Shown here in pieces: positions 1 to 18,238 of a stretch of 27,119 nucleotides of DNA (its first letter is position 1; each line of letters starts with the position of its first letter). The notes beneath the pieces are model-generated. The model had not been told where the DNA came from and searched no databases. It was given only the letters and a program-made list of their open reading frames with translations. A program made the translations under genes and the position numbers. The DNA comes from Candidatus Thorarchaeota archaeon. Its GTDB lineage: Archaea; Asgardarchaeota; Thorarchaeia; Thorarchaeales; Thorarchaeaceae. The stretch lies in the NCBI GenBank assembly GCA_048882385.1, contig JBHLRQ010000036.1, forward strand, positions 1 through 27,119, written 5' to 3'.

Positions 1-329
1 TTGACTTGTGTATTGCTGATGCTGATACAGTGACCTGGACTGCCATCAAGGTTAATGTCCAGTCCATTAATGATGTATGGAGTTTCAGACGAACCATCAC
101 CAGGCCATCCCTCTAAAGTTGCGGTGGCAGAGAAGTTATCATCTCCATCAATGATAATGGGAGCATGAGGTGTGCCTGCAAGGTAAAGTGGTCTTGATTC
201 TGGTTCTTCGATTGCTTCATTTGTCAAAGGAGTAAGCACATCTAAGTTATGTATTGGCATTATATTTCCAAGTAGTAAGATGATGATCAAACAAACCGTA
301 ATCGAAAAGACACCATTCTTTCCATACAT
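1..329 (-). CDS. Secreted/surface protein of the NosD/right-handed parallel beta-helix type (N-terminal part only, runs off the window)
   Basis: Not in the ORF track; translated by hand from ATG at 329: MYGKNGVFSITVCLIIILLLG...HAPIIIDGDDNF...GWPGDGSSETPYIINGLDI...CISISNT. Signal-peptide-like N-terminus and a GAAGGAG RBS upstream. The HAPI.I.G...GW.GDGS...PYII motif is typical of archaeal beta-helix surface proteins. Confidence 0.75.
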   Translation of the reverse strand, partial: MYGKNGVFSITVCLIIILLLGNIMPIHNLDVLTPLTNEAIEEPESRPLYLAGTPHAPIIIDGDDNFSATATLEGWPGDGSSETPYIINGLDINLDGSPGHCISISNTQV

Positions 330-509
330 GCATTTTTTCTCCTTCACTGCGAAAAAGACGATTGAGGTTTATTTATGCTGGTCTACATGCTTGGAGTCAA
401 TGTTGTGAAGCTACTTCCCATTTCCTTCGCAGAACTTCTCCTACTATTGGTTCGTATGCTTATTAATCAGAGTAGATAGACTAATCTTAGAGAGTTCAAT
501 TCGAGCTGG

Positions 510-554
510 TCAAAGCGAATATCTGTGCCTGTCTAGGAATTCTTGTTTCTTCGC
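510..554 (-). repeat. Copy C of the nrdD 3' end (encodes AKKQEFLDRHRYSL*)
   Basis: 35/45 nt identical to 2888-2932. All 10 mismatches are synonymous third-codon positions. Confidence 0.9.
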
Positions 555-673
555 TGAACACTAGTATATTTGCAATGTCATCAGCTCTAGGTCTGTATAG
601 GGACAGAAAAAACACCCAGAGGAAGGAGGCTTTTTAAGAAAGGTCAGTGACGGTCTAGAACTAACTGAAAGAT

Positions 674-1192
674 GTGGACAGGATGGAGAGAAGAACCAAG
701 ACTGTAGCCTTCCTCATGATTGGTGGGTTTCTATACACATGCTACATAGTTCTCAGTGGATGGATAATGGGGCTGAATCACCTCTATGACCTCTATTCTG
801 GTCAGGTCTGGAGCAGTGGACCAATGATACTAATCTATAGGACTTCAATCTTGCTGCCTATTGTCGATATTGCAGGAGTGCTAGTAATTCTTGGTGCTGT
901 TGTATACTACAGAACATACGAACCAACTAAAGAACAAGTTGTTGTAGTGAGAGGAAAACTAGTCCTGTTAGCGGGCTTCGTTATTGAAACTATCGCCATA
1001 TTGATCCACGCGTTTGGTCTTCTCGTAGCATTCAGTTATCCAGAGGCAGCCTTGCAAACTGTGGACTACATAGCCGCATTGATAATGGGAGATGTAGCTT
1101 CGTTAGGGATTGGTATTTTAGCGTTCGCCACCACTATGGTTGGAATTCTTCTAGGTGGAGTTCACAAAGGGGTGGAGTTCAAAGTGTCGTAA
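674..1192 (+). CDS. Hypothetical integral membrane protein (about 4 TM helices), cassette gene
   Basis: 172-aa ORF with four long hydrophobic segments and a TATA-like TTTTTAAG near 631-638. The start may be ATG 683. Confidence 0.7.
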   Translation: MDRMERRTKTVAFLMIGGFLYTCYIVLSGWIMGLNHLYDLYSGQVWSSGPMILIYRTSILLPIVDIAGVLVILGAVVYYRTYEPTKEQVVVVRGKLVLLAGFVIETIAILIHAFGLLVAFSYPEAALQTVDYIAALIMGDVASLGIGILAFATTMVGILLGGVHKGVEFKVS

Positions 1193-1266
1193 CTATGATC
1201 AAAAAGATTGCATTTCATGAGAGTTCAACAAGCACGGTCACAACTCTAGATAATTTTGAGTAGAAT

Positions 1267-1338
1267 CTATAGAGCATATCGATGCCGGTCTAGGAACTCC
1301 TCCTTCTTGGCAGGATTGAATGACGAAAGTGACTGGAG
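1267..1338 (-). repeat. Copy B of the nrdD 3' end (encodes LQSLSSFNPAKKEEFLDRHRYAL*)
   Basis: 20/23 aa identical to the NrdD C-terminus LQALSSFNPAKKQEFLDRHRYSL*. 1292-1320 matches 2913-2941 at 27/29 nt. Confidence 0.92.
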
Positions 1339-1423
1339 GAATTCATGCAAATAGACTGTCGAGATCAGCCTGAATTCTGTTGGTAGACTTGTTCATGCCT
1401 ATAAAAATCGGTAGTTGCAGGTA

Positions 1424-2206
1424 TTATCGATTATGCACGAGAGCAATGTCCTTAGTCTTGTACACATAGACCTCTCTTCTACTCTTGGTTCTCATAATAG
1501 TTGCAGCTCCATTTTGCCATTTCTTCATTGCTTTCAGTGTGGGCTTGCCTTCGTCACTGTTCAGCCAGTCTGTGATCTCATGCACATCAGGATCATCGAT
1601 GGCTGCTATTGCCTTGGTCACCTTCACTCCTCTTCCGATAGTTTCAAAGAGGCTCTCCTGTAACCAGCGTTTGCGTTCACTGCCATCTTCCTCAACTGGG
1701 ACGAGCCAACAACCAAAGCCATAGGACGTTCCAAACACGTACTTTTGATAGAACCTCTCGAGCTCTTGTTGATAGTGAACGACCATTTGATCGGGTTCTC
1801 TGCCTTCTATCTCGATGCTTACTTCATGGGTCTGCTTTACCTCGTCCAATACTATTGTGATGATGGGAGCTACTGATCTACACTTCTCTTTATACTCGTC
1901 ACTGGAGGGATCACACTCATCATCACAGAAAAAACAGCGAACGATCTCATTCTCTATCGCCACCATATAGTCAGCGTCTATGTTATAGGGATACCATTTC
2001 TTATATTCGAGCTCTTTCCGACCACTCCGTGCTTTGTGAATCTGTTTCTCAATAGAGCGTACTGTGTCATGTATCATCTCCTCTACGACAGTAACTGTAT
2101 CATCTAAGGAAACTCCTCTCTCTTGGATGTACTTTAAAGCAGCACGCTGATGCTCCTTTCGCATAGTCATGATTGAACCGGATAGTGCTATTATTGTTTC
2201 GTACAT
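1424..2206 (-). CDS. Hypothetical soluble protein, cassette gene
   Basis: 260-aa charged ORF containing CFFCDDEC. No family recognised. The start may be ATG 2170. Confidence 0.7.
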   Translation of the reverse strand: MYETIIALSGSIMTMRKEHQRAALKYIQERGVSLDDTVTVVEEMIHDTVRSIEKQIHKARSGRKELEYKKWYPYNIDADYMVAIENEIVRCFFCDDECDPSSDEYKEKCRSVAPIITIVLDEVKQTHEVSIEIEGREPDQMVVHYQQELERFYQKYVFGTSYGFGCWLVPVEEDGSERKRWLQESLFETIGRGVKVTKAIAAIDDPDVHEITDWLNSDEGKPTLKAMKKWQNGAATIMRTKSRREVYVYKTKDIALVHNR

Positions 2207-2227
2207 TTTCTTTTGAGTGAGAAGGAG

Positions 2228-2279
2228 TTACAGGAGTATCGATGCCGATCTAGAAATTCCTGCTTCTTTGCAGGATTGA
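2228..2279 (-). repeat. Copy A of the nrdD 3' end (NPAKKQEFLDRHRYS, then a 1-nt deletion before TAA)
   Basis: 2258-2279 is identical over 22 nt to 2919-2940; the rest differs synonymously. It abuts the stop codon of ORF 2280-2819. Confidence 0.92.
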
Positions 2280-2819
2280 CTACACTTGAAATTTGATCTC
2301 TATTATGCCACTTGCCCCACAATACTGACAAGTATAGACCATGTCTTTATGAACTGCATCCAAGTCAATATTACCATCACAGTTCGGACATTCCATCGGG
2401 GTGGAGATTCTTTTAAGTAGTGAGAATTGTGATACTCCAATGTGGCGTCGTGATCCTTTTGGAATCTTCAGTGCTATTTTGTGATTTTCAAACTCAACAA
2501 TTGTCTTTGCAAAAAGAGGGACAAGAAAGAATATTGTGACTCCCACAGAAATGACTATGAAGTCCGCTGGGACCCAAGGACGCTCTATTAAAAACCAAAC
2601 CCACGCCCAGAAGAAAAACATTGAAGTGAAACCAGTAATCAATACGGTCACGCAGCGGTTTTCTGAACTAGCAGCCTTGATACAGCTGTTCGAACAAAAA
2701 GTTCCCTCTCTGTGAGTAAGCCATCTATCACTTTGAGGTGAACCACACCAGTCACAACGTTTTGTCTTGGACGCGTCTAGAATTATGTGTATACGTGGCA
2801 GGTCTTTCTCTTTAGCCAA
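2280..2819 (-). CDS. Membrane protein with two TM helices flanked by two putative Zn-binding domains, cassette gene
   Basis: CDWC...FCSNSC at the N-terminus, two hydrophobic helices, CPNC...CQYC at the C-terminus. TTG start with RBS-like GAGGT and TATA-like TTTTTAAC upstream. Confidence 0.78.
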   Translation of the reverse strand: MAKEKDLPRIHIILDASKTKRCDWCGSPQSDRWLTHREGTFCSNSCIKAASSENRCVTVLITGFTSMFFFWAWVWFLIERPWVPADFIVISVGVTIFFLVPLFAKTIVEFENHKIALKIPKGSRRHIGVSQFSLLKRISTPMECPNCDGNIDLDAVHKDMVYTCQYCGASGIIEIKFQV

Positions 2820-2887
2820 CCCCTAACCTCATGCCCATTTCTTCATGAGGCGTTAAAAAGTTTCAAGTCCTTGGTAGAACTGCAATG

Positions 2888-5029
2888 TCAGAGTGAATAC
2901 CTGTGTCTATCAAGGAACTCCTGCTTCTTTGCAGGATTGAAGCTCGACAAAGCCTGTAGGTACCCTGTAATCCTGCTGAATACTTCCATACCAACAACTC
3001 CACACTTTGGACATGCAATTCTTGAGAGCTCTTCTATCGAGGTGAAACTAGTAGTTCTCCAATCAATACCTGTTTGGTAGTTACAGTTTCCACAAACACA
3101 CACATCTTTGGTGAAGCTCCAGTAAGAATTCAAGGTGTCAGTTGCAATCTTCTTTGTCAGTTCCCACAGAGCAATAGGATCTGGGTTCGCCTCACCTAGA
3201 TAGATGTGTGTAAGAGCTCCACCATCCATGAATGGGTGGAACATTCCTTCTTTCCTGATTCGTTGTGAAAGTGGCAGATTGGCATTGACATCTAGTGTTG
3301 TGCTGTTAGTATAATAGACATTAGGTGCATTTCCCTTGAGATACCTACGCATGCCAGGGTAGGCTTTGTAATCCTTGGCTGCAAGACGACCAGCCGCACT
3401 CTCAGCGGGTGTTCTAGTCACGCCAAAATGAAGACCTGTTTCTTCTTGAAACTCTGCAGCTCTCTGTTTCAAATGTTTGAGTACTTTGATTCCAAAACGC
3501 GTACCTTCAGCTTCGTGAAGATGGTGGTCTGTCATCACCATTGCCATCTCATCAAAACCTACAGTCCCAAGCAAGAACTCACGTTTGTTCATGTCGATCA
3601 GGGGATCACCGTTTGGTTTTGGCTGAGTATAGAATGGGACACTTCCACTGCCAATCAGTTTGTCCATGAGTCGTTTCTTCTCAAGAATGACCTCCTTAGA
3701 CAGCTCTACAAAACTATCAACCCTCTCAAAGAACCTGTCCTCATCAGTCCTGCCTAGCCAAGCAGCACGTCCAAAGTTGGGAGTGACCATCTGAGAAGCT
3801 CCAAACACCATGTTTCCGCTCAAAAACTCCTCCAGTTCCTCGTCACTACTTGCAGTCCAGAGATGTGAACAGCAACTGCTACATCCTGCCTCGATTTTTG
3901 ATCGCCAGTTGAGATAGTTCTCAAAATAGGGAGAACCATGCTTTGCTGTAAGCTCTGCTACAAGTTCCCATGAGGGCTCATATTCAGAACCCATGAACTC
4001 TTTTCTCAGTACAATGTTGGGTTTTGGAAAACCAAAGCCCTTGCCCTTCACATCACCTTTCAACATGACATCCATAAAGGCGTTGAAGAAGAGTCTCGCT
4101 TCTTCTTCATAGTCCCCATATGTAATCTCTGTTTCTTTACCTCCGGGCAGGACTGCAGGAACATCACGCATAATCTTTGGAATGCCTGGCGTGAGGTCAA
4201 CACTTGAAAAGATGACTTGCCCTCCACGAGCAACATACTGTTGAGTGAGTGTGAATACGAGTTGCTGTGCGGCTTGCTTGATCTTCTTATACGGTTGACC
4301 TTTCATGAATGGAGCAAGAAAGGTGTTGAAATAGAAGTACCCTTGACCACCAGCAAAGGAGCTCTGGGCAGCAGCTAGCCAGATTGCTGAGTGATTGACA
4401 GCCACAGAGAGATGTTGAGCAGGACCTGCAGCACTTGAGTGCATTCCGCCTAATCCATCCGGAGCGATACCCAGTTTTAGAACCTGGCGAAGATCCCACG
4501 TAGCACAGTAATCTCGTGTGCTGAAATATTCCCTGTCTTTGATGTAGATATCTCCCCTGAGGTGAGCATCTGCAAGATGAGGGGGTATCGAGAGGTAGGT
4601 ATGTTGTTCCATCACTTGATCATGGACCAGCTTCGCAATGGTTTCAGGATTACGCATTAGGTTTGCATTGTATGTATGGTCACCGGGATTATTGATGAGC
4701 ATAGTAAGATCATGCATCGGAATTCCAACACGAGTGTATAGGATACGTTCCTTTTCGAAGCCCATTTCTGCTAAGATACTGTTACACATCTCACGGATGA
4801 GCGGTCCAGACAAGAACTTGATACCAGAAGCAACAATTCGGTCCATTACCTTGACTGCAATCAAATGAGCATCTGCATGAAGAAGACCTGCTTCAAGAAT
4901 GAGGCTATCAATTATCTTGCTCGCATCGAAAGTTTCCATAGTACTACTGGTTGTACGAACCTTCGGCATCTTCTTCTCTCTGGCTTTGAGATCCTCTGCA
5001 GATGTGATTGTACTTCCTATGTCAGTCAT
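2888..5029 (-). CDS. nrdD: Anaerobic (class III) ribonucleoside-triphosphate reductase with N-terminal ATP cone
   Basis: ATP cone (VRTTSSTMETFDASKI), AHLRGDIYIKD, DYC, GGQ, SCC, TPAES, YYTNS, a CxxC...CxxC metal site and the glycyl-radical motif RITGY. Confidence 0.96.
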   Translation of the reverse strand: MTDIGSTITSAEDLKAREKKMPKVRTTSSTMETFDASKIIDSLILEAGLLHADAHLIAVKVMDRIVASGIKFLSGPLIREMCNSILAEMGFEKERILYTRVGIPMHDLTMLINNPGDHTYNANLMRNPETIAKLVHDQVMEQHTYLSIPPHLADAHLRGDIYIKDREYFSTRDYCATWDLRQVLKLGIAPDGLGGMHSSAAGPAQHLSVAVNHSAIWLAAAQSSFAGGQGYFYFNTFLAPFMKGQPYKKIKQAAQQLVFTLTQQYVARGGQVIFSSVDLTPGIPKIMRDVPAVLPGGKETEITYGDYEEEARLFFNAFMDVMLKGDVKGKGFGFPKPNIVLRKEFMGSEYEPSWELVAELTAKHGSPYFENYLNWRSKIEAGCSSCCSHLWTASSDEELEEFLSGNMVFGASQMVTPNFGRAAWLGRTDEDRFFERVDSFVELSKEVILEKKRLMDKLIGSGSVPFYTQPKPNGDPLIDMNKREFLLGTVGFDEMAMVMTDHHLHEAEGTRFGIKVLKHLKQRAAEFQEETGLHFGVTRTPAESAAGRLAAKDYKAYPGMRRYLKGNAPNVYYTNSTTLDVNANLPLSQRIRKEGMFHPFMDGGALTHIYLGEANPDPIALWELTKKIATDTLNSYWSFTKDVCVCGNCNYQTGIDWRTTSFTSIEELSRIACPKCGVVGMEVFSRITGYLQALSSFNPAKKQEFLDRHRYSL

Positions 5030-5334
5030 GCGTACCTCTGGACCTCCTCACGAATAGCCTCAACGCTCGGGACTTCTCCACTATAGAGAAGTCGAAGTTT
5101 GCCGCCATTTTCAATAATGATTGAGGGAGTACTGGCAATGAAGAGTTGTTGTTCAAGAAGTCTAAACTCGAAGTCGGGATCCATTCTTTTAAGATCAATT
5201 GTTTCAATCCGAATATTGTTGGACCCATAAAATGCCTCATTGATTACTGCTTTCGCTGCAGGGCAATTGGCACAGTTGTCCTGCGTAAACAAGTATAGAG
5301 TTGGCTTCGTGGCTAGTCCTCCCGGCGATTGCAT
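5026..5334 (-). CDS. Thioredoxin/glutaredoxin-like protein (NrdH-like)
   Basis: CANC active site and STPS cis-Pro motif. 4-nt ATGA overlap with the nrdD start. Confidence 0.88.
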   Translation of the reverse strand: MQSPGGLATKPTLYLFTQDNCANCPAAKAVINEAFYGSNNIRIETIDLKRMDPDFEFRLLEQQLFIASTPSIIIENGGKLRLLYSGEVPSVEAIREEVQRYA

Positions 5335-5462
5335 TAAACACTCCCTCTCGGCAAGAAGGGGTAAAACAAGATGTGGTATTCGGATAATAAAAGCATGACG
5401 CCGCTCGGAGTCGGCTTGTCGCCTTGTTCTAGGCCAACCGGGGGAGTCCTTGTTTCAGACAT
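5334..5462 (-). other. Candidate leader of the redoxin-nrdD operon: 42-aa uORF and/or structured RNA
   Basis: ATG at 5462 opens MSETRTPPVGLEQGDKPTPSGVMLLLSEYHILFYPFLPRGSV*, whose TAA overlaps the redoxin ATG (TAATG). The region is GC-rich with possible hairpins. Confidence 0.3.
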
Positions 5463-5729
5463 TTTATCAACAGTTATCGTCCAGACCTCCCACTTAAGGT
5501 CATACCAATTTTCAACAAACCCACACCCTTCAAAACCACTATTTTGCAGTTCTGAACACTGGAATCAGCACAATCATCTAGTGAATGATACCAAGATATG
5601 AAACAAAAAGAGAACTGAGTTTGGCGCGATTCAATGTTGGTATATGCTCAAAATGCATTGTGATTGGTTGGATGAGGAAAACTAGAATAAGTGGTCCGAC
5701 ACTCTTTGAATGAACAAGGAGATAGTACA

Positions 5730-6353
5730 GTGCCAACATATGTGAGAGCAAGGACTCCTCTAGACGGGTGGACTCGCATTGTTAGGAAAATCATGGATAC
5801 AGGGATGACCCGCATTGATGAGAGGGAGAGTGAAACTCGCTGGCACGATAATGTCATGATCCATATAGTAGACCCATACTCAGAGCGCGTCAGTGAGAAG
5901 TATCCATTCAGCGAAGAGATCCTTCGTGACAAATATGCGACACAATTACTCAATCCAGACAGGTTAGATTTTGATTATACATATGGTGAGCGGCTCAATG
6001 CTTGGGGTGTTGAAACACTCAACCAAATCGACTATGTAATCAGAAAGCTAAAAGAGAGTCCTAATTCAAGAAGAGCTGTGGCTACAACATGGGATCCGAG
6101 GAAGGACATGTTTGTTGATGAAGTTCCATGTTTGAATCATTTTGTTTTCATGATGCGCGAGGGTGTTCTTGACATTTCTGTTATGATACGTTCAAACGAT
6201 ATGTATGGAGCATGGCCAGCCAATGTTTATGCGCTTGGTGAGTTTCTGACCTATGTTTCAGAGAGGACTGAACTAAAACCAGGTACGATTACCACTCTTT
6301 CAGTCAATGCACACATCTACAAACACGATTGGGAGAAGGCTGAAAAAATCTAA
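5730..6353 (+). CDS. thyA: Thymidylate synthase (short archaeal ThyA type)
   Basis: FDYTYGERL, SRRA, catalytic VPCL, RSND and NAHIY motifs. Likely GTG start at 5730 after AGGAG. Confidence 0.9.
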   Translation: MPTYVRARTPLDGWTRIVRKIMDTGMTRIDERESETRWHDNVMIHIVDPYSERVSEKYPFSEEILRDKYATQLLNPDRLDFDYTYGERLNAWGVETLNQIDYVIRKLKESPNSRRAVATTWDPRKDMFVDEVPCLNHFVFMMREGVLDISVMIRSNDMYGAWPANVYALGEFLTYVSERTELKPGTITTLSVNAHIYKHDWEKAEKI

Positions 6354-12149: not shown

Positions 12150-12860
12150 CTATCGGTCAATAACAAAGTCATGCCATTCTCTAGAGGTGTCTGTACCCCT
12201 CATTCTCTCCATTCTTAGCTGATGGACCGGTATGGAGCCTCTATCATCTATTCTAAAACGGAGGACTGCATCTGCTAGGTATGAGAAGGTTGCGTATGTC
12301 TTCTCATCATGTACTCCCTCTTCAAGTACATACATGATACTATGAGAACTCTGCGTGACTCTTCCACTCAAACGCTGGACAGCTCGAGGCATTGTTAGGG
12401 GATTAGAGTGAAGAATAAGAGTAGAGAGACTGTCAATTACAACTCGTGCAACCACCAAATCCTGCAATACTTCAGATAGGACAATTCCAAGCTCGCTAAT
12501 ATCATCAACCTTTGCTAGTGATCTTGCACTACCAGCTTTTGGTGCACCCATCCTTTCGGAATATCCATCAATGAATACAAACTTTCCTGAAGCTTCTTGT
12601 TCTTCAATTGACCAACCATGCCGACTCATATCGTTTCTGACAACTCTGGGTGAAACATCTGTAGTGACGAATACTGCTGGAAAACCCAGCTCAATTCCTT
12701 CAGCAAGAAAAGCTTCAGCGTATGTAGTCTTTCCTGACCCAAGTGGTCCAACTAACATATAGGAAACCTGTGTAAGCTGACCAAACTTAACAAGTTCACT
12801 AATCATAGGACTAGCTTTGGCTGGTTCAAGAGTTCCTGCTGAGTCCTGTTTCTCAACCAC
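12150..12860 (-). CDS. KaiC/RAD55-like RecA-superfamily ATPase, single domain
   Basis: Walker A GPLGSGKT, Walker B VVIDSLS and ERMRG. The catalytic EE position reads TD/DV. Confidence 0.85.
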   Translation of the reverse strand: MVEKQDSAGTLEPAKASPMISELVKFGQLTQVSYMLVGPLGSGKTTYAEAFLAEGIELGFPAVFVTTDVSPRVVRNDMSRHGWSIEEQEASGKFVFIDGYSERMGAPKAGSARSLAKVDDISELGIVLSEVLQDLVVARVVIDSLSTLILHSNPLTMPRAVQRLSGRVTQSSHSIMYVLEEGVHDEKTYATFSYLADAVLRFRIDDRGSIPVHQLRMERMRGTDTSREWHDFVIDR

Positions 12861-12884
12861 TTTGAGTACCCCACATGTTTCACA

Positions 12885-13631
12885 CTAATGTCCGGGACTA
12901 ATTTCACCAGGCCATACACGGATACCTTCATCTGTGATTCTCATTGAATGAATCCTTGAGCTGTGTTTTGAACCTCTCAATTTGAGAACCTCAATCGACC
13001 GAGAACGTGATGTGTCTGAAATTTTCTCGTTGTACAGTACAATGACACCTGATGCTAAGAACGCTTCGATATCAAAGACACCCAGTCCATGATCCTGGGC
13101 TGGAATCTCACTTGTTAGGAGAAGGGTGCAACCTGTTCGTGTGAGATTTGCAGTTAGTTTGAAGAACTCTTCGCGGAGAATGTCACGGCTCTTAAACTTG
13201 TAAGCCATAATCGAAAGCGTATCAAGAACAATCCGTTTTGCCTTGATCTTATTGACGTGATTCATGATGATTGCCTCTAATCCTGAGAGGTCGAAACTCG
13301 GATACTCGCCAATGGTCACAGGTGTGATCTCTTTTGATGGAGAGAGATCTACAATGGAGATCTTCTTTTCCTTCACAAGTTTATCAAGATCCATTCCAAA
13401 TTGAAGCATGTTCCTCTTGATGAGATGAGGAGGTTCCTCCAGGGTGACAAACACTCCTGGTTCATCATAATCGACAGCTCCTCTATAGATGAATTGAGTG
13501 GCAAGTATACTCTTTCCAGTACCAGCCTTACCTGCAATGAGGATAGTATCACCTCTTGGGAAGCCACCCTCAGTCAGTTCATCCAACCCGGGGATACCTG
13601 TCTTTACTCGTTCTATTTCGTGGTCGCTCAT
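12885..13631 (-). CDS. KaiC-like RecA-superfamily ATPase, single domain
   Basis: RVKTGIPGLD..GGFP, GKAGTGKS, TLEE, VLDTLS and VLKLRGS motifs. Confidence 0.92.
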   Translation of the reverse strand: MSDHEIERVKTGIPGLDELTEGGFPRGDTILIAGKAGTGKSILATQFIYRGAVDYDEPGVFVTLEEPPHLIKRNMLQFGMDLDKLVKEKKISIVDLSPSKEITPVTIGEYPSFDLSGLEAIIMNHVNKIKAKRIVLDTLSIMAYKFKSRDILREEFFKLTANLTRTGCTLLLTSEIPAQDHGLGVFDIEAFLASGVIVLYNEKISDTSRSRSIEVLKLRGSKHSSRIHSMRITDEGIRVWPGEISPGH

Positions 13632-13960
13632 TTTGACGCACCCTTTTTCTTCGTCTTTACTCCAACACCAAGCACCATTTTCATCAGCATGTCTCGTTCA
13701 GGGATACCAGTCACTGAAACACCTCCAATCATCACAGTAGGTAGTGCAAATATTCCATACTCTTCTGCTGCTTCAGGATTCTCTGAAACATTGATGATTT
13801 TAAGTTCGAAGGTGGCTGATCCAAAGTCTTCGATTGTTTCTCTAATTACTTCTTCAGCTCGTGGACAGAACGCGCATGAGTCGGACTTGAACAAGACGAT
13901 TTCAATAACATCATCATCATCCTGTTCTGATGACTTCCGACTCTTTTTCTTGTCCACCAA
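13628..13960 (-). CDS. Thioredoxin-family protein
   Basis: CAFC motif and AEEYGIFALPT. 4-nt overlap with the KaiC-like gene. Confidence 0.85.
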   Translation of the reverse strand: MVDKKKSRKSSEQDDDDVIEIVLFKSDSCAFCPRAEEVIRETIEDFGSATFELKIINVSENPEAAEEYGIFALPTVMIGGVSVTGIPERDMLMKMVLGVGVKTKKKGASK

Positions 13961-14076
13961 ATGGTCGCACTCCTGGTTTTGAGAAACGCATGGTTCAAAT
14001 CAAAGTTAGTCACTTGAATGTTTTGAGGATGTTAGGAGCCTGGAAAAATGCTCTGAATGGCAATATCCAGGTAATA

Positions 14077-14454
14077 TCATGCTCGCATCAGGCGGCGAAT
14101 CTTAGTTGCAGCTTTACCAATTGGTCTCGAGTGATATCGAACACTTTTTGGCATTACAGCGGCTAGGATCAACGCACCAGAACTCCTGCCAATCTTCTTG
14201 AACACGGCTTTTCCTTCAGTACACCGCAAACTAATATCTCGAATTTCTCCAAGCATGAGTTCCTTCCTAACACGTTCTGCGGAATCAGTAATGAAACTTG
14301 AAACAGCAGCAACCACATCCTTGTCCATTCCTGGAGAGACAGCAGACGCAATTGAGAGACCATCGCTCCTAACAAGAGAGGAGAGTGTAAATCCACCATC
14401 CTTGTTCATAGACTCAAGGATTTTTGGAAGTGCGGTATAATCAGGTCGTTGCAT
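14077..14454 (-). CDS. Roadblock/LC7 domain protein
   Basis: LVRSDGLSIAS...VAAVSS...AERVRKELMLG is the roadblock signature. The likely start is ATG 14454 after GGAG; the longer ORF-track version overlaps the GTPase gene. Confidence 0.85.
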   Translation of the reverse strand: MQRPDYTALPKILESMNKDGGFTLSSLVRSDGLSIASAVSPGMDKDVVAAVSSFITDSAERVRKELMLGEIRDISLRCTEGKAVFKKIGRSSGALILAAVMPKSVRYHSRPIGKAATKIRRLMRA

Positions 14455-14590
14455 TGTGAAGTACTCCATTAACTCAGCTTCGTACACTCGAGTTATGCGC
14501 TTCCCTAATAAACCATGTGAGATTGAATTGGTGTACAGTAGAGATTTAAATGCGATAGACCTTTGCAGTAGAGTACGGAGTCGTAAGGGA

Positions 14591-15139
14591 ATGTCCGCTG
14601 AGTACCGTTTCAAAATTGTCATGTTAGGAGACGGTGCTGTAGGCAAAACAGCCATGACGACCCGTTTCACACAGAACTTCTTCGATGCTGACTATAAGCG
14701 GACAATCGGAAGTGATTTTGCCATCAAACGCCTTGTAATTCCTGACATTGATACTAAGGTGACATTGCAAGTATGGGATCTTGCAGGACAGCCCCGATTC
14801 GAGTCAGTTCGGCAGGGATTCTATCGTGGTGCTCGAGGCGGACTTCTCCTTTATGATGTTACAAGACGTCGAACATTCCTGAATGTCGAGCATTGGAAGG
14901 AAGAGGCTTTCAAAAATCTAGTAAAAGAAATTCCACTGATTCTTGTTGCGAACAAAGTTGACCTCAAAGACTGTAGAGTGATAACAACCGAAGAAGGTGA
15001 AGAATATGCCAAAAAGAACGATTTCCTCTACACCGAATCAAGTGCACTTACAGGGGAGAATGTGGAGCATGCATATGAAACTCTCTGTAAAATAATGATA
15101 GAGGAATCGAAGAATTCAGCTGAAGAGAAATTAATCTAG
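14591..15139 (+). CDS. Rab-like small GTPase
   Basis: GDGAVGKT, RTIGSDF, WDLAGQ, NKVD and ESSAL motifs. No C-terminal Cys prenylation motif. Likely start ATG 14591. Confidence 0.95.
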   Translation: MSAEYRFKIVMLGDGAVGKTAMTTRFTQNFFDADYKRTIGSDFAIKRLVIPDIDTKVTLQVWDLAGQPRFESVRQGFYRGARGGLLLYDVTRRRTFLNVEHWKEEAFKNLVKEIPLILVANKVDLKDCRVITTEEGEEYAKKNDFLYTESSALTGENVEHAYETLCKIMIEESKNSAEEKLI

Positions 15140-15142
15140 TTT

Positions 15143-16276
15143 TTATTTTGTAGGAGTTCCTTTGAGAAGACCAAGTTCTCTTTTAGATTGCCACACAACA
15201 TAGAATATCTTCTTTGTCGCGAGTGTTTCTTCATCGTGTTGTGCACATAAAGTTTCAAACTTCTGAACATATTCCTCTCTGTTTTCTGGCGTCAGATTCG
15301 CTTTGATTTCATCTAGAAGGTCTTCAAACGGCTTTAGAGTGCCTGCCAAATCCCTCACATCCCAACGAATAATGGCACCAGTCCCATCAGAAGTGATGAA
15401 TGTTGATGCCTTTGGATACCATTCAATTCCATCGATTTCGCCAATGGTTGACGCCTCACCTTGGATGGTAAAGGTATCAGTTTCCCAAAGATACAGCACC
15501 TTATCACTAGATCCTGAAGCGAGGTACTTGCCATCTTCACTGAAGGTCAATGCACGAACCTCAGTTGAATGACCCTGGAGAACTTGTTCCATCTTCATCG
15601 GAGATTCAGTCGCGTTCCATATAATCATGTAATTGTCAGATGCACCTGATGCAAGTCGACTTCCATCATTGGTAAATCGCACTTGATGAACTGCAGCTCT
15701 GTGTTCTTTATGTCGTTCAATCATCTTTCCAGTGTTTGAATCCCATTCACAGATATTTGCGTCAACAGAACCTGAAACTATTCTGTTGTCATTAGGATCC
15801 CAATCGCATGTAACTACGTAAAAGCCATGCCCCTTTAATTGGTGTAACTTTGAACGGTTCTCAATGTCCCAGATTATCAGAGAAGTATCACCACTTCCGG
15901 ATACCAGTTTGTTTCCATCAGGAGAGAATGATAAGGATAGGACTGGATATGTGTGTCCCTCCAAGGTTCCAAGGCAATCACCAGTTCGGATGTCCCAGAG
16001 TTTCACAACTCTTTCAACGCTTCCGGAAGCGAGAAGGTCACCATTTGGACTAAATGCAATTGAGGTGCACAGAAACTCATCCTGCATTCGCTGCATCTCT
16101 TCACCATTATCAGCCATGTATAGGCGGATACTCCTATCTTGCATCGCTGCAGCATACATCCGACCGATTTTATTCATAGCAAAACGTCGAGTGATATCAG
16201 AACCATGCGCCGCCTGCGGTTTCAGGATTGTTGGTTTCAAGAAAATTTCGAAATCTTGACTCTCCATGGATGTCAC
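15143..16276 (-). CDS. WD40-repeat beta-propeller protein with short helical C-terminal extension
   Basis: Repeated GH...LASGS.D..I.WD units (about 7 blades) followed by a roughly 65-aa helical tail. Confidence 0.93.
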   Translation of the reverse strand: MTSMESQDFEIFLKPTILKPQAAHGSDITRRFAMNKIGRMYAAAMQDRSIRLYMADNGEEMQRMQDEFLCTSIAFSPNGDLLASGSVERVVKLWDIRTGDCLGTLEGHTYPVLSLSFSPDGNKLVSGSGDTSLIIWDIENRSKLHQLKGHGFYVVTCDWDPNDNRIVSGSVDANICEWDSNTGKMIERHKEHRAAVHQVRFTNDGSRLASGASDNYMIIWNATESPMKMEQVLQGHSTEVRALTFSEDGKYLASGSSDKVLYLWETDTFTIQGEASTIGEIDGIEWYPKASTFITSDGTGAIIRWDVRDLAGTLKPFEDLLDEIKANLTPENREEYVQKFETLCAQHDEETLATKKIFYVVWQSKRELGLLKGTPTK

Positions 16277-16447
16277 TCACAGAATCGGCTCTAACTGGTC
16301 AGACCGTGAAACAGCGTAAAAGTGTTATTAATGCATCATACTACGCACAGATTTATTTCGTCGTTTGCTAAAGACTATGAAGAATTTCTTGCCACATCAC
16401 AGTAACCATTATCAAGAGGAACAACGGGCATCAAAGGAGGGACACCC

Positions 16448-17668
16448 GTGGCTGAAGACGATGATAGAAAGCTTTCATTAACACTTGGTGGAGGAGAATC
16501 CGTAAGTCGTTTTAGGAAAGCAGTGAAGGGTGTCTTGAAGAAACCTAATGATGTTGTTAACAAAATGTTGGGTAATCTCACGAGTATTCAGGCATGCAAG
16601 GATGCGGCTTTGACTGGTGATGATGACCTTAGATTGCTTGCAGTCTGCAGACTTGGTGAGTTTGGTGCTGAAGCTTTTGAAGCCATCGAGATCTCACTTG
16701 TTGATGATAACCCACTAGTTCGAACAGTGGCAGCTGGAATGTTAGCTTACACTGAAGATCAAGAAGCTATAGAAATTTTGAAACCTTATCTCTCTGATAA
16801 TAATGAAACTGTAAGGGATACAATTCAATACTCACTGAACTGGTTGGAAGAGAATGCCACAGAGAAGGAACATGGGACCAAAATTCCTGACAAGTGGGAA
16901 GATGCAGCTGATGTTCTTCTCAGTACTGATTCAATTCCATTAAAAACTGAAGAAGATGTGGAGGTTATTAGCACCTACACTGCGTTTCCAGAGAGTCTTG
17001 AGTTAGGGATGACAGTTGAAAACAATACTCTGGAAACAATCTATGAGGTTTCCATCAAGATTTTGTTGTATCCAAACGAGAGCCTCATGCCTATTGATCC
17101 ACTGAGTCAACTCATCAAGTCAATAGAACCAGGGAGTATTGAAGCACTGATTTTCGGATTCAAAGTCATCAATGAGGTAGTGGAAGGAGAGTTTGTAAGC
17201 TCAGTCCAATTCATCAATGAAAAAGGGGAGGATGTCGCTGCAATATCGGGAAACATTTTCGTGAGGTCCTTGTTCGAACAGATTATTCCTCTAGAAGCAA
17301 CTACTGAAGATCTATTAAGTCTGAAATCTGAGATGAAAGAATGGAATAGAGAACACTCTCTTGAGATTGAAGGAAAGGCTCTTTTCAAGACCGTGAACAA
17401 ACTCTTTCAAACGTGGAACCTTCACGTAGTCCAGTCAGAGAAGATACAGAGGGATGGAGTGTTCATGGGTGTAGTTTCGGGGATGGGAGAAGGGAGAATC
17501 CATGGAAACAAGTTATCAGTAACCCTTACTGTTGTTGGAAAACTTGATGACAATCTATCGAAGATTAGAATTGATGTTCTTTGCGAAAATCAAGAAGTCC
17601 TTCATACAATAGCGAGTGTTCTCTTTGAAACCATCCAACGAGAACTTGGTGTCATTGAAATCGATTGA
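16448..17668 (+). CDS. HEAT-repeat protein with adaptin/coatomer appendage-like C-terminal region
   Basis: PBS-lyase-type HEAT repeats (LVDDNPLVRTVAAGML, LSDNNETVRDTI), an Ig-like beta-sandwich (LGMTVENNT..IYEVSIKI) and an alpha/beta platform-like end. The appendage assignment is inference. Confidence 0.7.
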   Translation: MAEDDDRKLSLTLGGGESVSRFRKAVKGVLKKPNDVVNKMLGNLTSIQACKDAALTGDDDLRLLAVCRLGEFGAEAFEAIEISLVDDNPLVRTVAAGMLAYTEDQEAIEILKPYLSDNNETVRDTIQYSLNWLEENATEKEHGTKIPDKWEDAADVLLSTDSIPLKTEEDVEVISTYTAFPESLELGMTVENNTLETIYEVSIKILLYPNESLMPIDPLSQLIKSIEPGSIEALIFGFKVINEVVEGEFVSSVQFINEKGEDVAAISGNIFVRSLFEQIIPLEATTEDLLSLKSEMKEWNREHSLEIEGKALFKTVNKLFQTWNLHVVQSEKIQRDGVFMGVVSGMGEGRIHGNKLSVTLTVVGKLDDNLSKIRIDVLCENQEVLHTIASVLFETIQRELGVIEID

Positions 17669-17671
17669 TAT

Positions 17672-18238
17672 CTATGCCAGTCCGCCTGCTTCAAGTATCT
17701 TGATTGCTAATTCTAAGAAAGAAGCTTCGACGTTCAATCCAGTTTTTGCAGATGTTTCGAGAAAGGATGTATGCACACCATTCTTAGCGATTTCTGAGGC
17801 TAGCTTCTGACCCTCTTCTGTCGTTACAAGGGTCTGCTGCATTACTGGATTATCCTTGAACTGGTCTCGAAGATCCGTCTTGTTTCCTATGACAACAATT
17901 GGTATCTTCTTGCCTGCATTGGTCCAGCACTCTTCGACCCAGTTCATGAGGTTCTCAAAGGATTTCCTCTCAACTGTGGAATAGACTCCTAGAGCTCCCT
18001 GAGCACCTTTGTAGAAAGTTGACCGCACACTCTTGAAGTGCTCCTGACCTGCAAGATCCCATATTTGTATACTAACGTCGTGACCGCCCTCGAGTTGCAT
18101 CTTCTTGACAGCGAAGTCTGCGCCGATGGTAATCATATAGTTAGCCCTAAAACCTTCTCCCATGTAGGTTCTTCGGAGACTGGTCTTACCGACGCTTCCA
18201 TCTCCCATCAATACAACCTTGAACAACGCAGTGACCAT
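17672..18238 (-). CDS. Rab-like small GTPase
   Basis: GDGSVGKT, ITIGADF, WDLAGQ, GNKTD and ETSAK motifs. No prenylation motif. Confidence 0.95.
   Translation of the reverse strand: MVTALFKVVLMGDGSVGKTSLRRTYMGEGFRANYMITIGADFAVKKMQLEGGHDVSIQIWDLAGQEHFKSVRSTFYKGAQGALGVYSTVERKSFENLMNWVEECWTNAGKKIPIVVIGNKTDLRDQFKDNPVMQQTLVTTEEGQKLASEIAKNGVHTSFLETSAKTGLNVEASFLELAIKILEAGGLA

Follow-up and report, generated by a model that had tools for sequence, protein, structure and literature searches.

The window, meaning the whole stretch of 27,119 nt that was analysed (C36:1-27119 of the source genome G000, a draft of 256 contigs with 95% completeness and 4.9% contamination), carries near its start nrdD and, behind the 3' end of this gene, an array in which partial copies of that end alternate with mostly unrelated accessory genes (Table 1). 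The partial copies are here called orphan tails, and the genes between them cassettes. The window starts at the end of its contig, where 77 identical bases overlap contig C148 of the same genome. Cassette 4 runs on into that contig, and beyond it follow four more tails and three more cassettes. The whole array of the source genome consists of one live and seven orphan tails with seven cassettes, in units of 661, 960, 757, 2181, 978, 671, and 1504 bp that mostly hold one gene each.

Table 1. Features of the array behind nrdD in the window (- and +, strand)
Feature	Position	Strand	Evidence or remark
Cassette 4 cargo (start), 2181-bp unit: NosD-type beta-helix protein	1..347	-	Family representative PF05048/PF13229
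Possible second vestige of the nuclease C-terminus, weak alone	459..500	+	Control P about 0.04
Orphan tail C (AKKQEFLDRHRYSL, TGA)	510..554	-	
Cassette 3 cargo, 757-bp unit: 172-aa membrane protein	674..1192	+	
Vestige, C-terminus of convergent NUMOD3-HNH nuclease (TVTTLDNFE-stop)	1234..1263	+	Profile score 13.6
Orphan tail B (LQSLSSF...RHRYAL, TAG), full length from the G|Y boundary	1267..1339	-	
Cassette 2 cargo, 960-bp unit: 260-aa protein without family	1424..2206	-	
Orphan tail A (NPAKK...RHRYS), one-base deletion before TAA	2228..2279	-	
Cassette 1 cargo, 661-bp unit: 179-aa zinc-finger membrane protein, function unassigned	2280..2819	-	
Live 3' tail of nrdD, RITGY G-Y codons to stop; the duplicated stretch	2888..2965	-	Orphan-tail starts
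nrdD, class III anaerobic ribonucleotide reductase, host gene of the array	2888..5029	-	PF13597, E 2e-133; 713-aa ORF
Glutaredoxin/thioredoxin-like gene upstream of nrdD, outside the array	5026..5334	-	Same order in L158/L159

The junctions of tail C, tail A, and the live end are bridged by contigs of an independent assembly (run X4, possibly the source sample), and the live-end junction is bridged also by a contig of the public run X8. A contig of run X7 that links position 501 to 1288, with 28 other letters between them, was discounted: its short side measures 46 nt at 85% likeness and may belong to another organism. No family was found for cassettes 1-3, and cassette 2 is without a Pfam, PHROG, or Atlas assignment. 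Homologues of cassette 1 form the first cassette behind nrdD in G001 and G099; its identification as an HNH protein on one weak PHROG match was rejected, as the match rests on cysteine pairs. A search of positions 1-6000 against Rfam gave no match, and a scan for promoters and terminators, built for bacterial promoters and applied here to an archaeal host, stayed at chance level. Farther along the window (12150-18238) lie a pair of KaiC-like ATPase genes, a roadblock-type gene, two small GTPase genes, and genes for WD40 and HEAT-repeat proteins, by eye typical Asgard content. Homologues of a protein associated with the array carry the name Candidatus Thorarchaeota in their sources, and we read the gene content as agreeing with that group.

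An earlier note, made from the letters of the window, had read the orphan tails as ends of once functional nrdD genes, and most of its counts were reproduced. Tail C and the final 45 nt of nrdD (2888-2932) disagree at 10 of 45 positions, all of them synonymous third codon positions; tail B keeps 20 of 23 residues in the span running from LQ to L; and the RHR motif is spelled CGG CAT CGA in tails A and B, AGA CAC AGG in the live gene, and AGG CAC AGA in tail C. The stop codons were given correctly for the live end (TGA), tail B (TAG), and tail C (TGA). The TAA assigned to tail A (2228-2230) lies one base out of frame, and the frame of this copy as it stands reads past the nrdD end. When 10 substitutions were drawn at random, the peptide was kept in 0 of 400,000 draws, whichever transition bias was tried, which rules against the neutral decay of a local duplication, as the note had argued.

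It had further been proposed that each copy is a foreign nrdD allele. This is true insofar as a tail is partly a former live end, and it fails insofar as each tail is a hybrid and not the whole allele of one lineage. No clear best lineage emerged for any copy on comparison with foreign nrdD ends (best foreign match 31-32 of 36 nt, host 27-28), and with synonymous sites near saturation no donor could be assigned. As for a possible import of the present nrdD end, the tail window of the live gene is no more discordant than windows of its body (12 full genes, whose synonymous sites are close to saturated). In its last 45 nt, the live gene matches G003 at 40 positions and the tree neighbours G002 and G026 at 29 and 30; windows of 78 nt are low in signal throughout the gene. 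It follows from the alignment that recombination of copy B or C with nrdD would restore the reading frame.

Across the genomes compared, the orphan tails begin at nearly the same place. Out of 56 tail starts, 55 fall within 82 nt of the gene end and 26 at 70-82 nt, and nrdD is equally conserved upstream of this wall (59 orphans were analysed, three of which lay too near a contig end to be scored). A 225-nt orphan (G015:C101) sat in the live reference set for the tail comparisons and outside the orphan counts, and the first tail of G026:C231, which entered the counts as a live end, possibly belongs to a second copy of the gene or is itself a long orphan. The wall coincides with the G-Y codons of RITGY, which we take to be the glycyl-radical motif of nrdD, and has the same position in other genera. 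Within the tails, the last 18 nt follow the downstream cassette (agreement at variable columns of 0.60 versus 0.46, 10 clusters, p 0.0005), columns -78 to -46 follow the upstream cassette (0.56 versus 0.35, 6 clusters, p 0.001), and the middle is linked to neither neighbour. Judged by these agreements, orphan tails are hybrids, the 3' end of which belongs with the downstream cassette and the 5' part with the upstream one.

The tails also decay along the array. An intact core was found in 8 of 12 first-position tails versus 3 of 20 later ones, and in 2 of 21 last tails versus 20 of 38 others; the correlation of position with decay is rho 0.38 (n 32) among genomes that are kin and not independent. 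Distal tails carry stops, frameshifts, and substitutions, and most tails are without an in-frame start codon.

Within the genus, which is represented by 28 genomes, at least 20 carry orphan nrdD tails. Of the remaining eight, six are without an assembled nrdD end and two have a live end only. Elsewhere in the family, the tails occur in at least 13 genomes, which belong to eight other genera; these counts are lower bounds, as only flagged loci were fetched. Units have a median length of 973 bp (51 units), and their cargo spans unrelated enzymes, membrane proteins, and repeat proteins. In G068, one cassette is present in tandem copies, and in G030 a 16-kb island with restriction genes lies between tails. 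The order and rank of cassettes vary from genome to genome. Unit 2 of the window leads the array in G002 and takes second place in G013, unit 5 leads in G003, and units 4 and 5 stand in swapped order in G010. Unit 2 in G002 and unit 5 in G003 are tail-plus-cassette units directly behind a live nrdD, an arrangement that agrees with the earlier reading.

The exchange among relatives that the note had postulated is borne out by the cassettes, whose identity between genomes exceeds that of the gene they follow. Whole units are 85-91% identical for units 2, 3, and 5 (unit 2 is 86-87% identical over its full length in G002 and G013, unit 3 91% in G008) and 79-80% for unit 4 (in G014 and G010), as against 77-79% for the nrdD bodies. 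A control gene beyond the arrays follows nrdD distance (rho 0.82), whereas a luciferase-like cassette does not (rho 0.05, 44 pairs). The plain reading of these comparisons is that cassettes spread horizontally between species. A hemerythrin cassette was observed both in the etfA array of the source genome (L082:13351-14001) and in the nrdD arrays of G068 and G099 (L117:6586-7278 and L119:3907-4650), with 77-78% protein identity, which indicates that cargo can move between arrays of different host genes. Cassettes encoding TPR proteins, which repeatedly come first behind nrdD in another genus, were considered as a driver and rejected, since they are members of a host paralogue family.

A candidate for the driving enzyme was found beside nrdD itself. 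In G073, a broken NUMOD3-HNH gene has a stop that overlaps the nrdD stop, in the order tail, broken nuclease, module, orphan tail. A search of 86 genomes of the family with this gene showed that homologues abut nrdD ends also in G085, G075, G083, G016, G008, and G004. The gene is broken at full length in G073 and G085 and partial in the other five; no orphan tail was seen at the locus in G085. An intact gene of 311 aa (PF07460 and PF01844), convergent with nrdD, was obtained by a metagenome scan on one public contig pair (L158/L159), where nrdD is 89% identical to that of the window, the gene order is the same, and no orphan tail occurs in the 1.2 kb behind the intact nuclease. A scan of genome contigs gave no further case beside nrdD, and viral contigs gave one weak, irrelevant match with A1 and none with A4. 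About 30 related intact proteins are available, some homologues being named McrA in their sources. The assignment to the HNH endonucleases, which have a beta-beta-alpha-metal domain with a catalytic His and Zn cysteines, is based on a PF01844 match over the cut-off, a profile match to the GVE2 HNH structure 5h0m (E 1e-8), and invariant CxxC, HH, and CxxCH motifs; in the subfamily found beside nrdD, no evident counterpart of the central HNH Asn is seen, and the predicted model (mean pLDDT 78, pTM 0.38) gave weak HNH matches in a fold search.

In the source genome, the nuclease at nrdD is represented by vestiges only. These were sought with a profile of 14 residues of the nuclease C-terminus at a threshold of 9.6, the 99th percentile of 694 control gene-end flanks. 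A vestige above the threshold lies behind 19 of 123 tails, 13 of them outside the profile set and six profile sources that were scored without themselves; same-strand control flanks reach a maximum of 7.9. The vestige at tail B has a score exceeded by 1 of the 694 controls, and tail 6, on C148, is above the threshold as well. The candidate at copy C is borderline; it lies at the usual distance of 12-13 nt and is shared by the same cassette in G010, G014, G024, and G030. The other 104 of the 123 flanks, including those of the live end of the window and of copy A, are below the 99th percentile. A tblastn search of the source genome with four HNH queries gave no match, because the vestiges are too short or frameshifted.

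At all three near-full nuclease loci, the motif of nrdD reads R-V-T-G, as it does at 3 of 35 others, two of which have a vestige. As a protective change would look like this, RVTG is a candidate resistance change; the association rests on three related elements. A sister subfamily of the nuclease adjoins tRNA-Met genes, and its copy in G022 lies between the tRNA and a 23-nt copy of the 3' end of that tRNA. At sites where no tail of a conserved gene was seen, the nuclease gene frequently closes a module that also holds primase-like and TGT/DpdA-like genes, and for this reason it may be cargo or a restriction-type enzyme. The module consists of a small ORF followed by archaeo-eukaryotic-primase-like, TGT/DpdA-like, and NUMOD3-HNH genes, and was seen at L166-L169 (G020, G063, G072, and G033), L121 (G073), and L174 (G015). 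In G033 it occupies a 4.4-kb contig with a 47-nt terminal repeat, and in G063 the HNH end recurs as a 170-nt repeat on either side of it; the module is possibly a mobile element not yet described.

We consider it probable that the array behind nrdD is a homing scar array of the WHO type with cargo, in which a nuclease replaces the end of nrdD and accessory genes are captured. The array would be WHO-like in its working, and the presumed enzyme is no member of the WHO protein family. A free-standing NUMOD3-HNH endonuclease would cut or nick alleles of nrdD that have no nuclease gene beside them, in the neighbourhood of the RITG|Y codons, which in the window puts the presumed cut or repair site near 2960-2970. 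Repair on the incoming DNA of a relative would then copy the donor's nrdD end together with whatever follows it, and the product would be rejoined to the recipient's old end either via the orphan tail of the donor or by short-homology end joining. In this way nrdD would stay whole with a new tail, the old one being displaced downstream behind the new block, which is the pattern that the arrays display. The nuclease gene would subsequently decay to a stub of about 10-14 codons or vanish, for which the loci described above provide a graded series, and its loss would reopen the site so that the cycle could repeat. Finally, recombination between tails would duplicate, delete, and reorder cassettes and move them between species. 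The tandem pair of G068 would fit this step, and changes of cassette order, tandem copies, and cross-species identity are all found as patterns.

Hybrid tails with spread crossovers and the tandem copies of G068 would, on the other hand, also arise if no nuclease took part. Homology-facilitated illegitimate recombination anchored in nrdD, followed by homologous recombination between tails, would then build the array, with HNH genes as frequent cargo. Tails are also found behind a number of genes unrelated to one another, and those at ahcY vary in length; both points speak for such a process, which has been proposed for T6SS and Rhs arrays in the part of the source available (PMC5361080). It does not predict the wall at 70-82 nt across genera, the clustered starts at etfA and actin, or the constant spacing at which nuclease stubs follow cassettes of many kinds, and we therefore regard it as unlikely. 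The fixed 5' boundary and the 16-kb island of G030 could also be explained by tandem integrative elements, if the integrase of a passing virus or ICE used the nrdD 3' end as attB and restored it, the cassettes being remnants without integrase or satellites. Accretion at the 3' ends of housekeeping genes is established for integrative elements, and matches to PF00589 lie elsewhere in the genome in 8 of 24 other genomes of the genus. They are absent from the other 16, which suggests that no XerA-type resolvase is conserved among the genus genomes searched. No integrase was detected in 125 scanned array proteins (95 cluster representatives plus 30 of 98 proteins of a second batch, 68 being unscanned) and none in the source genome, which at 95% completeness has 0 matches to the families for tyrosine recombinases (PF00589), serine recombinases (PF00239), LAGLIDADG enzymes (PF14528), HNH enzymes (PF01844), and reverse transcriptases (PF00078). 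A single crossover should moreover link a whole tail to its downstream cassette, whereas only the last 18 nt are linked, and the junction in G073 cuts through the primase-like gene. This explanation thus has a small chance of being right.

Two further explanations are less credible still. Many first-position tails keep their peptide intact, as would be expected if the copies were kept as small peptides or RNAs; decayed distal tails, the general want of an in-frame start codon, and the Rfam result for 1-6000 make this very improbable, and the same holds for neutral local duplications in the light of the simulation. A misassembly in which strains mixed within one metagenome bin were joined would suit a contaminated draft of many contigs, and many arrays do end at contig breaks. 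The copies differ at many sites, however, the architecture recurs in 33 genomes, and contigs of public runs bridge three junctions, so that we give an artefact next to no weight. A diversity-generating retroelement would have a reverse transcriptase and leave adenine-specific variation; the differences here are at third codon positions and involve any base, and the source genome has no PF00078 match.

Orphan 3' ends are not confined to nrdD. In the source genome they were observed also on contigs C34 (L082), C100 (L083), C21 (L084), C56 (L086), C5 (L087), and C1 (L085), behind etfA (three), ahcY (two), actin, a gene for a 2274-aa surface protein, a metallo-hydrolase gene, and an mvhD-like gene, host names that were given in part by the look of the sequences. 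Tail arrays at etfA, ahcY, and actin occur in relatives of the source genome too, with clustered starts at etfA and actin. No remnant matching five HNH queries was found in these arrays, which may have been made by other nucleases or have another cause. Duplicated gene heads upstream of genes were sought in a weak scan with mechanical start codons, and only paralogues were found. In G028:C20, G029:C63, and G080:C5, frames of about 1247 codons were observed for nrdD, which probably bear an intein.

At actin, an in-frame insertion of 30 nt that ends in a stop codon was observed about 60 nt before the stop in G034 (L088), G073 (L091), G063 (L092), G065 (L093), and G070 (L094); G072 shows the same span, and the insertion is absent from G000, G015, G081, and G083. 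In three of the five it can be folded so that a 9-bp stem stands above a 4-bp helix that has a 3-nt bulge. This is a relaxed form of the bulge-helix-bulge motif, and once the insertion is taken out at the bulges, the conserved FQKMW is read again. The insertion is hence a candidate for an endonuclease-spliced intron in the mRNA of Asgard actin, on which nothing was found among literature titles. Orphan actin tails start at or just after the insertion site in all 12 examined. In G083, the main actin gene and a divergent paralogue of it (L095:2332-3453, 41% identical) have almost the same tail and terminator.

A wider reading, possible but less likely than not, is that in Thorarchaeota and other Asgard archaea the 3' ends of nrdD, etfA, ahcY, actin, and tRNA genes are integron-like platforms of gene capture run by NUMOD3-HNH nucleases. 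The linked primase-polymerase would join ends, the TGT/DpdA-like enzyme would provide self-protection, and cassettes would later spread between species and genera by short-homology repair without the nuclease. If so, relatives of eukaryotes would have a general integrase-free means of gaining accessory genes, and the last codons of their core genes would be mosaic. If the homing model of the nrdD array is true, it likewise describes an integrase-free way of collecting genes. Homing of this kind has so far been shown in yeast nuclei and fungal mitochondria, and the present loci point to an archaeal chromosome, with a homing site as cassette collector in a lineage where most searched genomes are without a tyrosine recombinase. 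A specific enzyme, a site, and a candidate resistance change can be named. In practical terms, nrdD, actin, etfA, and ahcY of these archaea may have 3' ends whose history departs from the species tree, and the arrays account for recurrent contig breaks behind these genes.

Among known systems, integrons and tandem islands at the 3' ends of housekeeping genes also hold ordered cassettes of one or few genes at one site. Integrons and CALINs are defined by IntI and attC; no integrase was found among the scanned proteins of nrdD arrays, and the repeats there are coding gene ends. As far as the available part of the report goes, archaeal Tn7-like elements lie beside nrdD, which makes this gene a known target class, and Tn7 leaves a 5-bp duplication outside the gene (bioRxiv 2025.07.27.667033); no TnsABC or TniQ Pfam family was found among the 125 scanned array proteins. 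The displacement arrays of Rhs, CDI, and T6SS loci resemble the nrdD array in being integrase-free, in growing next to the gene, in their orphan 3' ends, and in horizontal exchange, according to the accessible text (PMC5361080). Their payload is a variable toxin tip with an immunity gene, whereas here the tail peptide is constant and the genes are unrelated. The accessible portion of a paper on Asgard mobile elements (PMC11529989) describes other things, and a literature search that covered few subscription papers yielded no account of such arrays in archaea.

Closer parallels come from free-standing endonucleases. The seg and mob genes of T-even phages, which perform intronless homing, include HNH enzymes beside ribonucleotide reductase genes, as here, and these cut conserved coding sequence and co-convert its flanks; both flanks are homologous in phage crosses, and the part of the source available describes no duplicated gene end or cassette stack (PMC2988022). 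The mORFs of fungal mitochondria (Allomyces atp6; Glomus atp6, atp9, cox2, and nad3) share with the nrdD array a fused foreign C-terminus with synonymous differences, a native C-terminus displaced behind an endonuclease ORF, and several host genes per genome. They differ in being organellar, in using LAGLIDADG or GIY-YIG enzymes, and, in the text available, in showing usually one event per gene and no cargo (PMC3630166, PMC4019555).

The closest model is that of the WHO elements at FBA1 in Torulaspora and Lachancea, where gene fragments start at the cut site and act as the second homology arm (PMC7282813; Coughlan et al. 2020). As far as the available part of that paper goes, the WHO enzyme is an intein-like LAGLIDADG-zinc finger protein of the yeast nucleus, and the enzyme here a NUMOD3-HNH protein of an archaeal chromosome; WHO tails measure about 400 nt and nrdD tails 30-82 nt; and, unlike in WHO clusters, the units at nrdD are mostly unrelated accessory genes, the nuclease is a stub, cassettes cross species and genera, and cleavage is predicted only. 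An active WHO unit consists of a resistant 3' end, an intact nuclease, and a downstream fragment; at nrdD, G073 has a broken nuclease between a tail and an orphan tail, and L158/L159 an intact one with no orphan tail within 1.2 kb. In both systems, on the same portion of the text, the nuclease gene immediately follows the host gene (at nrdD an intact copy in L158/L159 and broken or partial copies in seven relatives), and fragments share a common start, with the newest unit nearest the gene and the older ones decayed.
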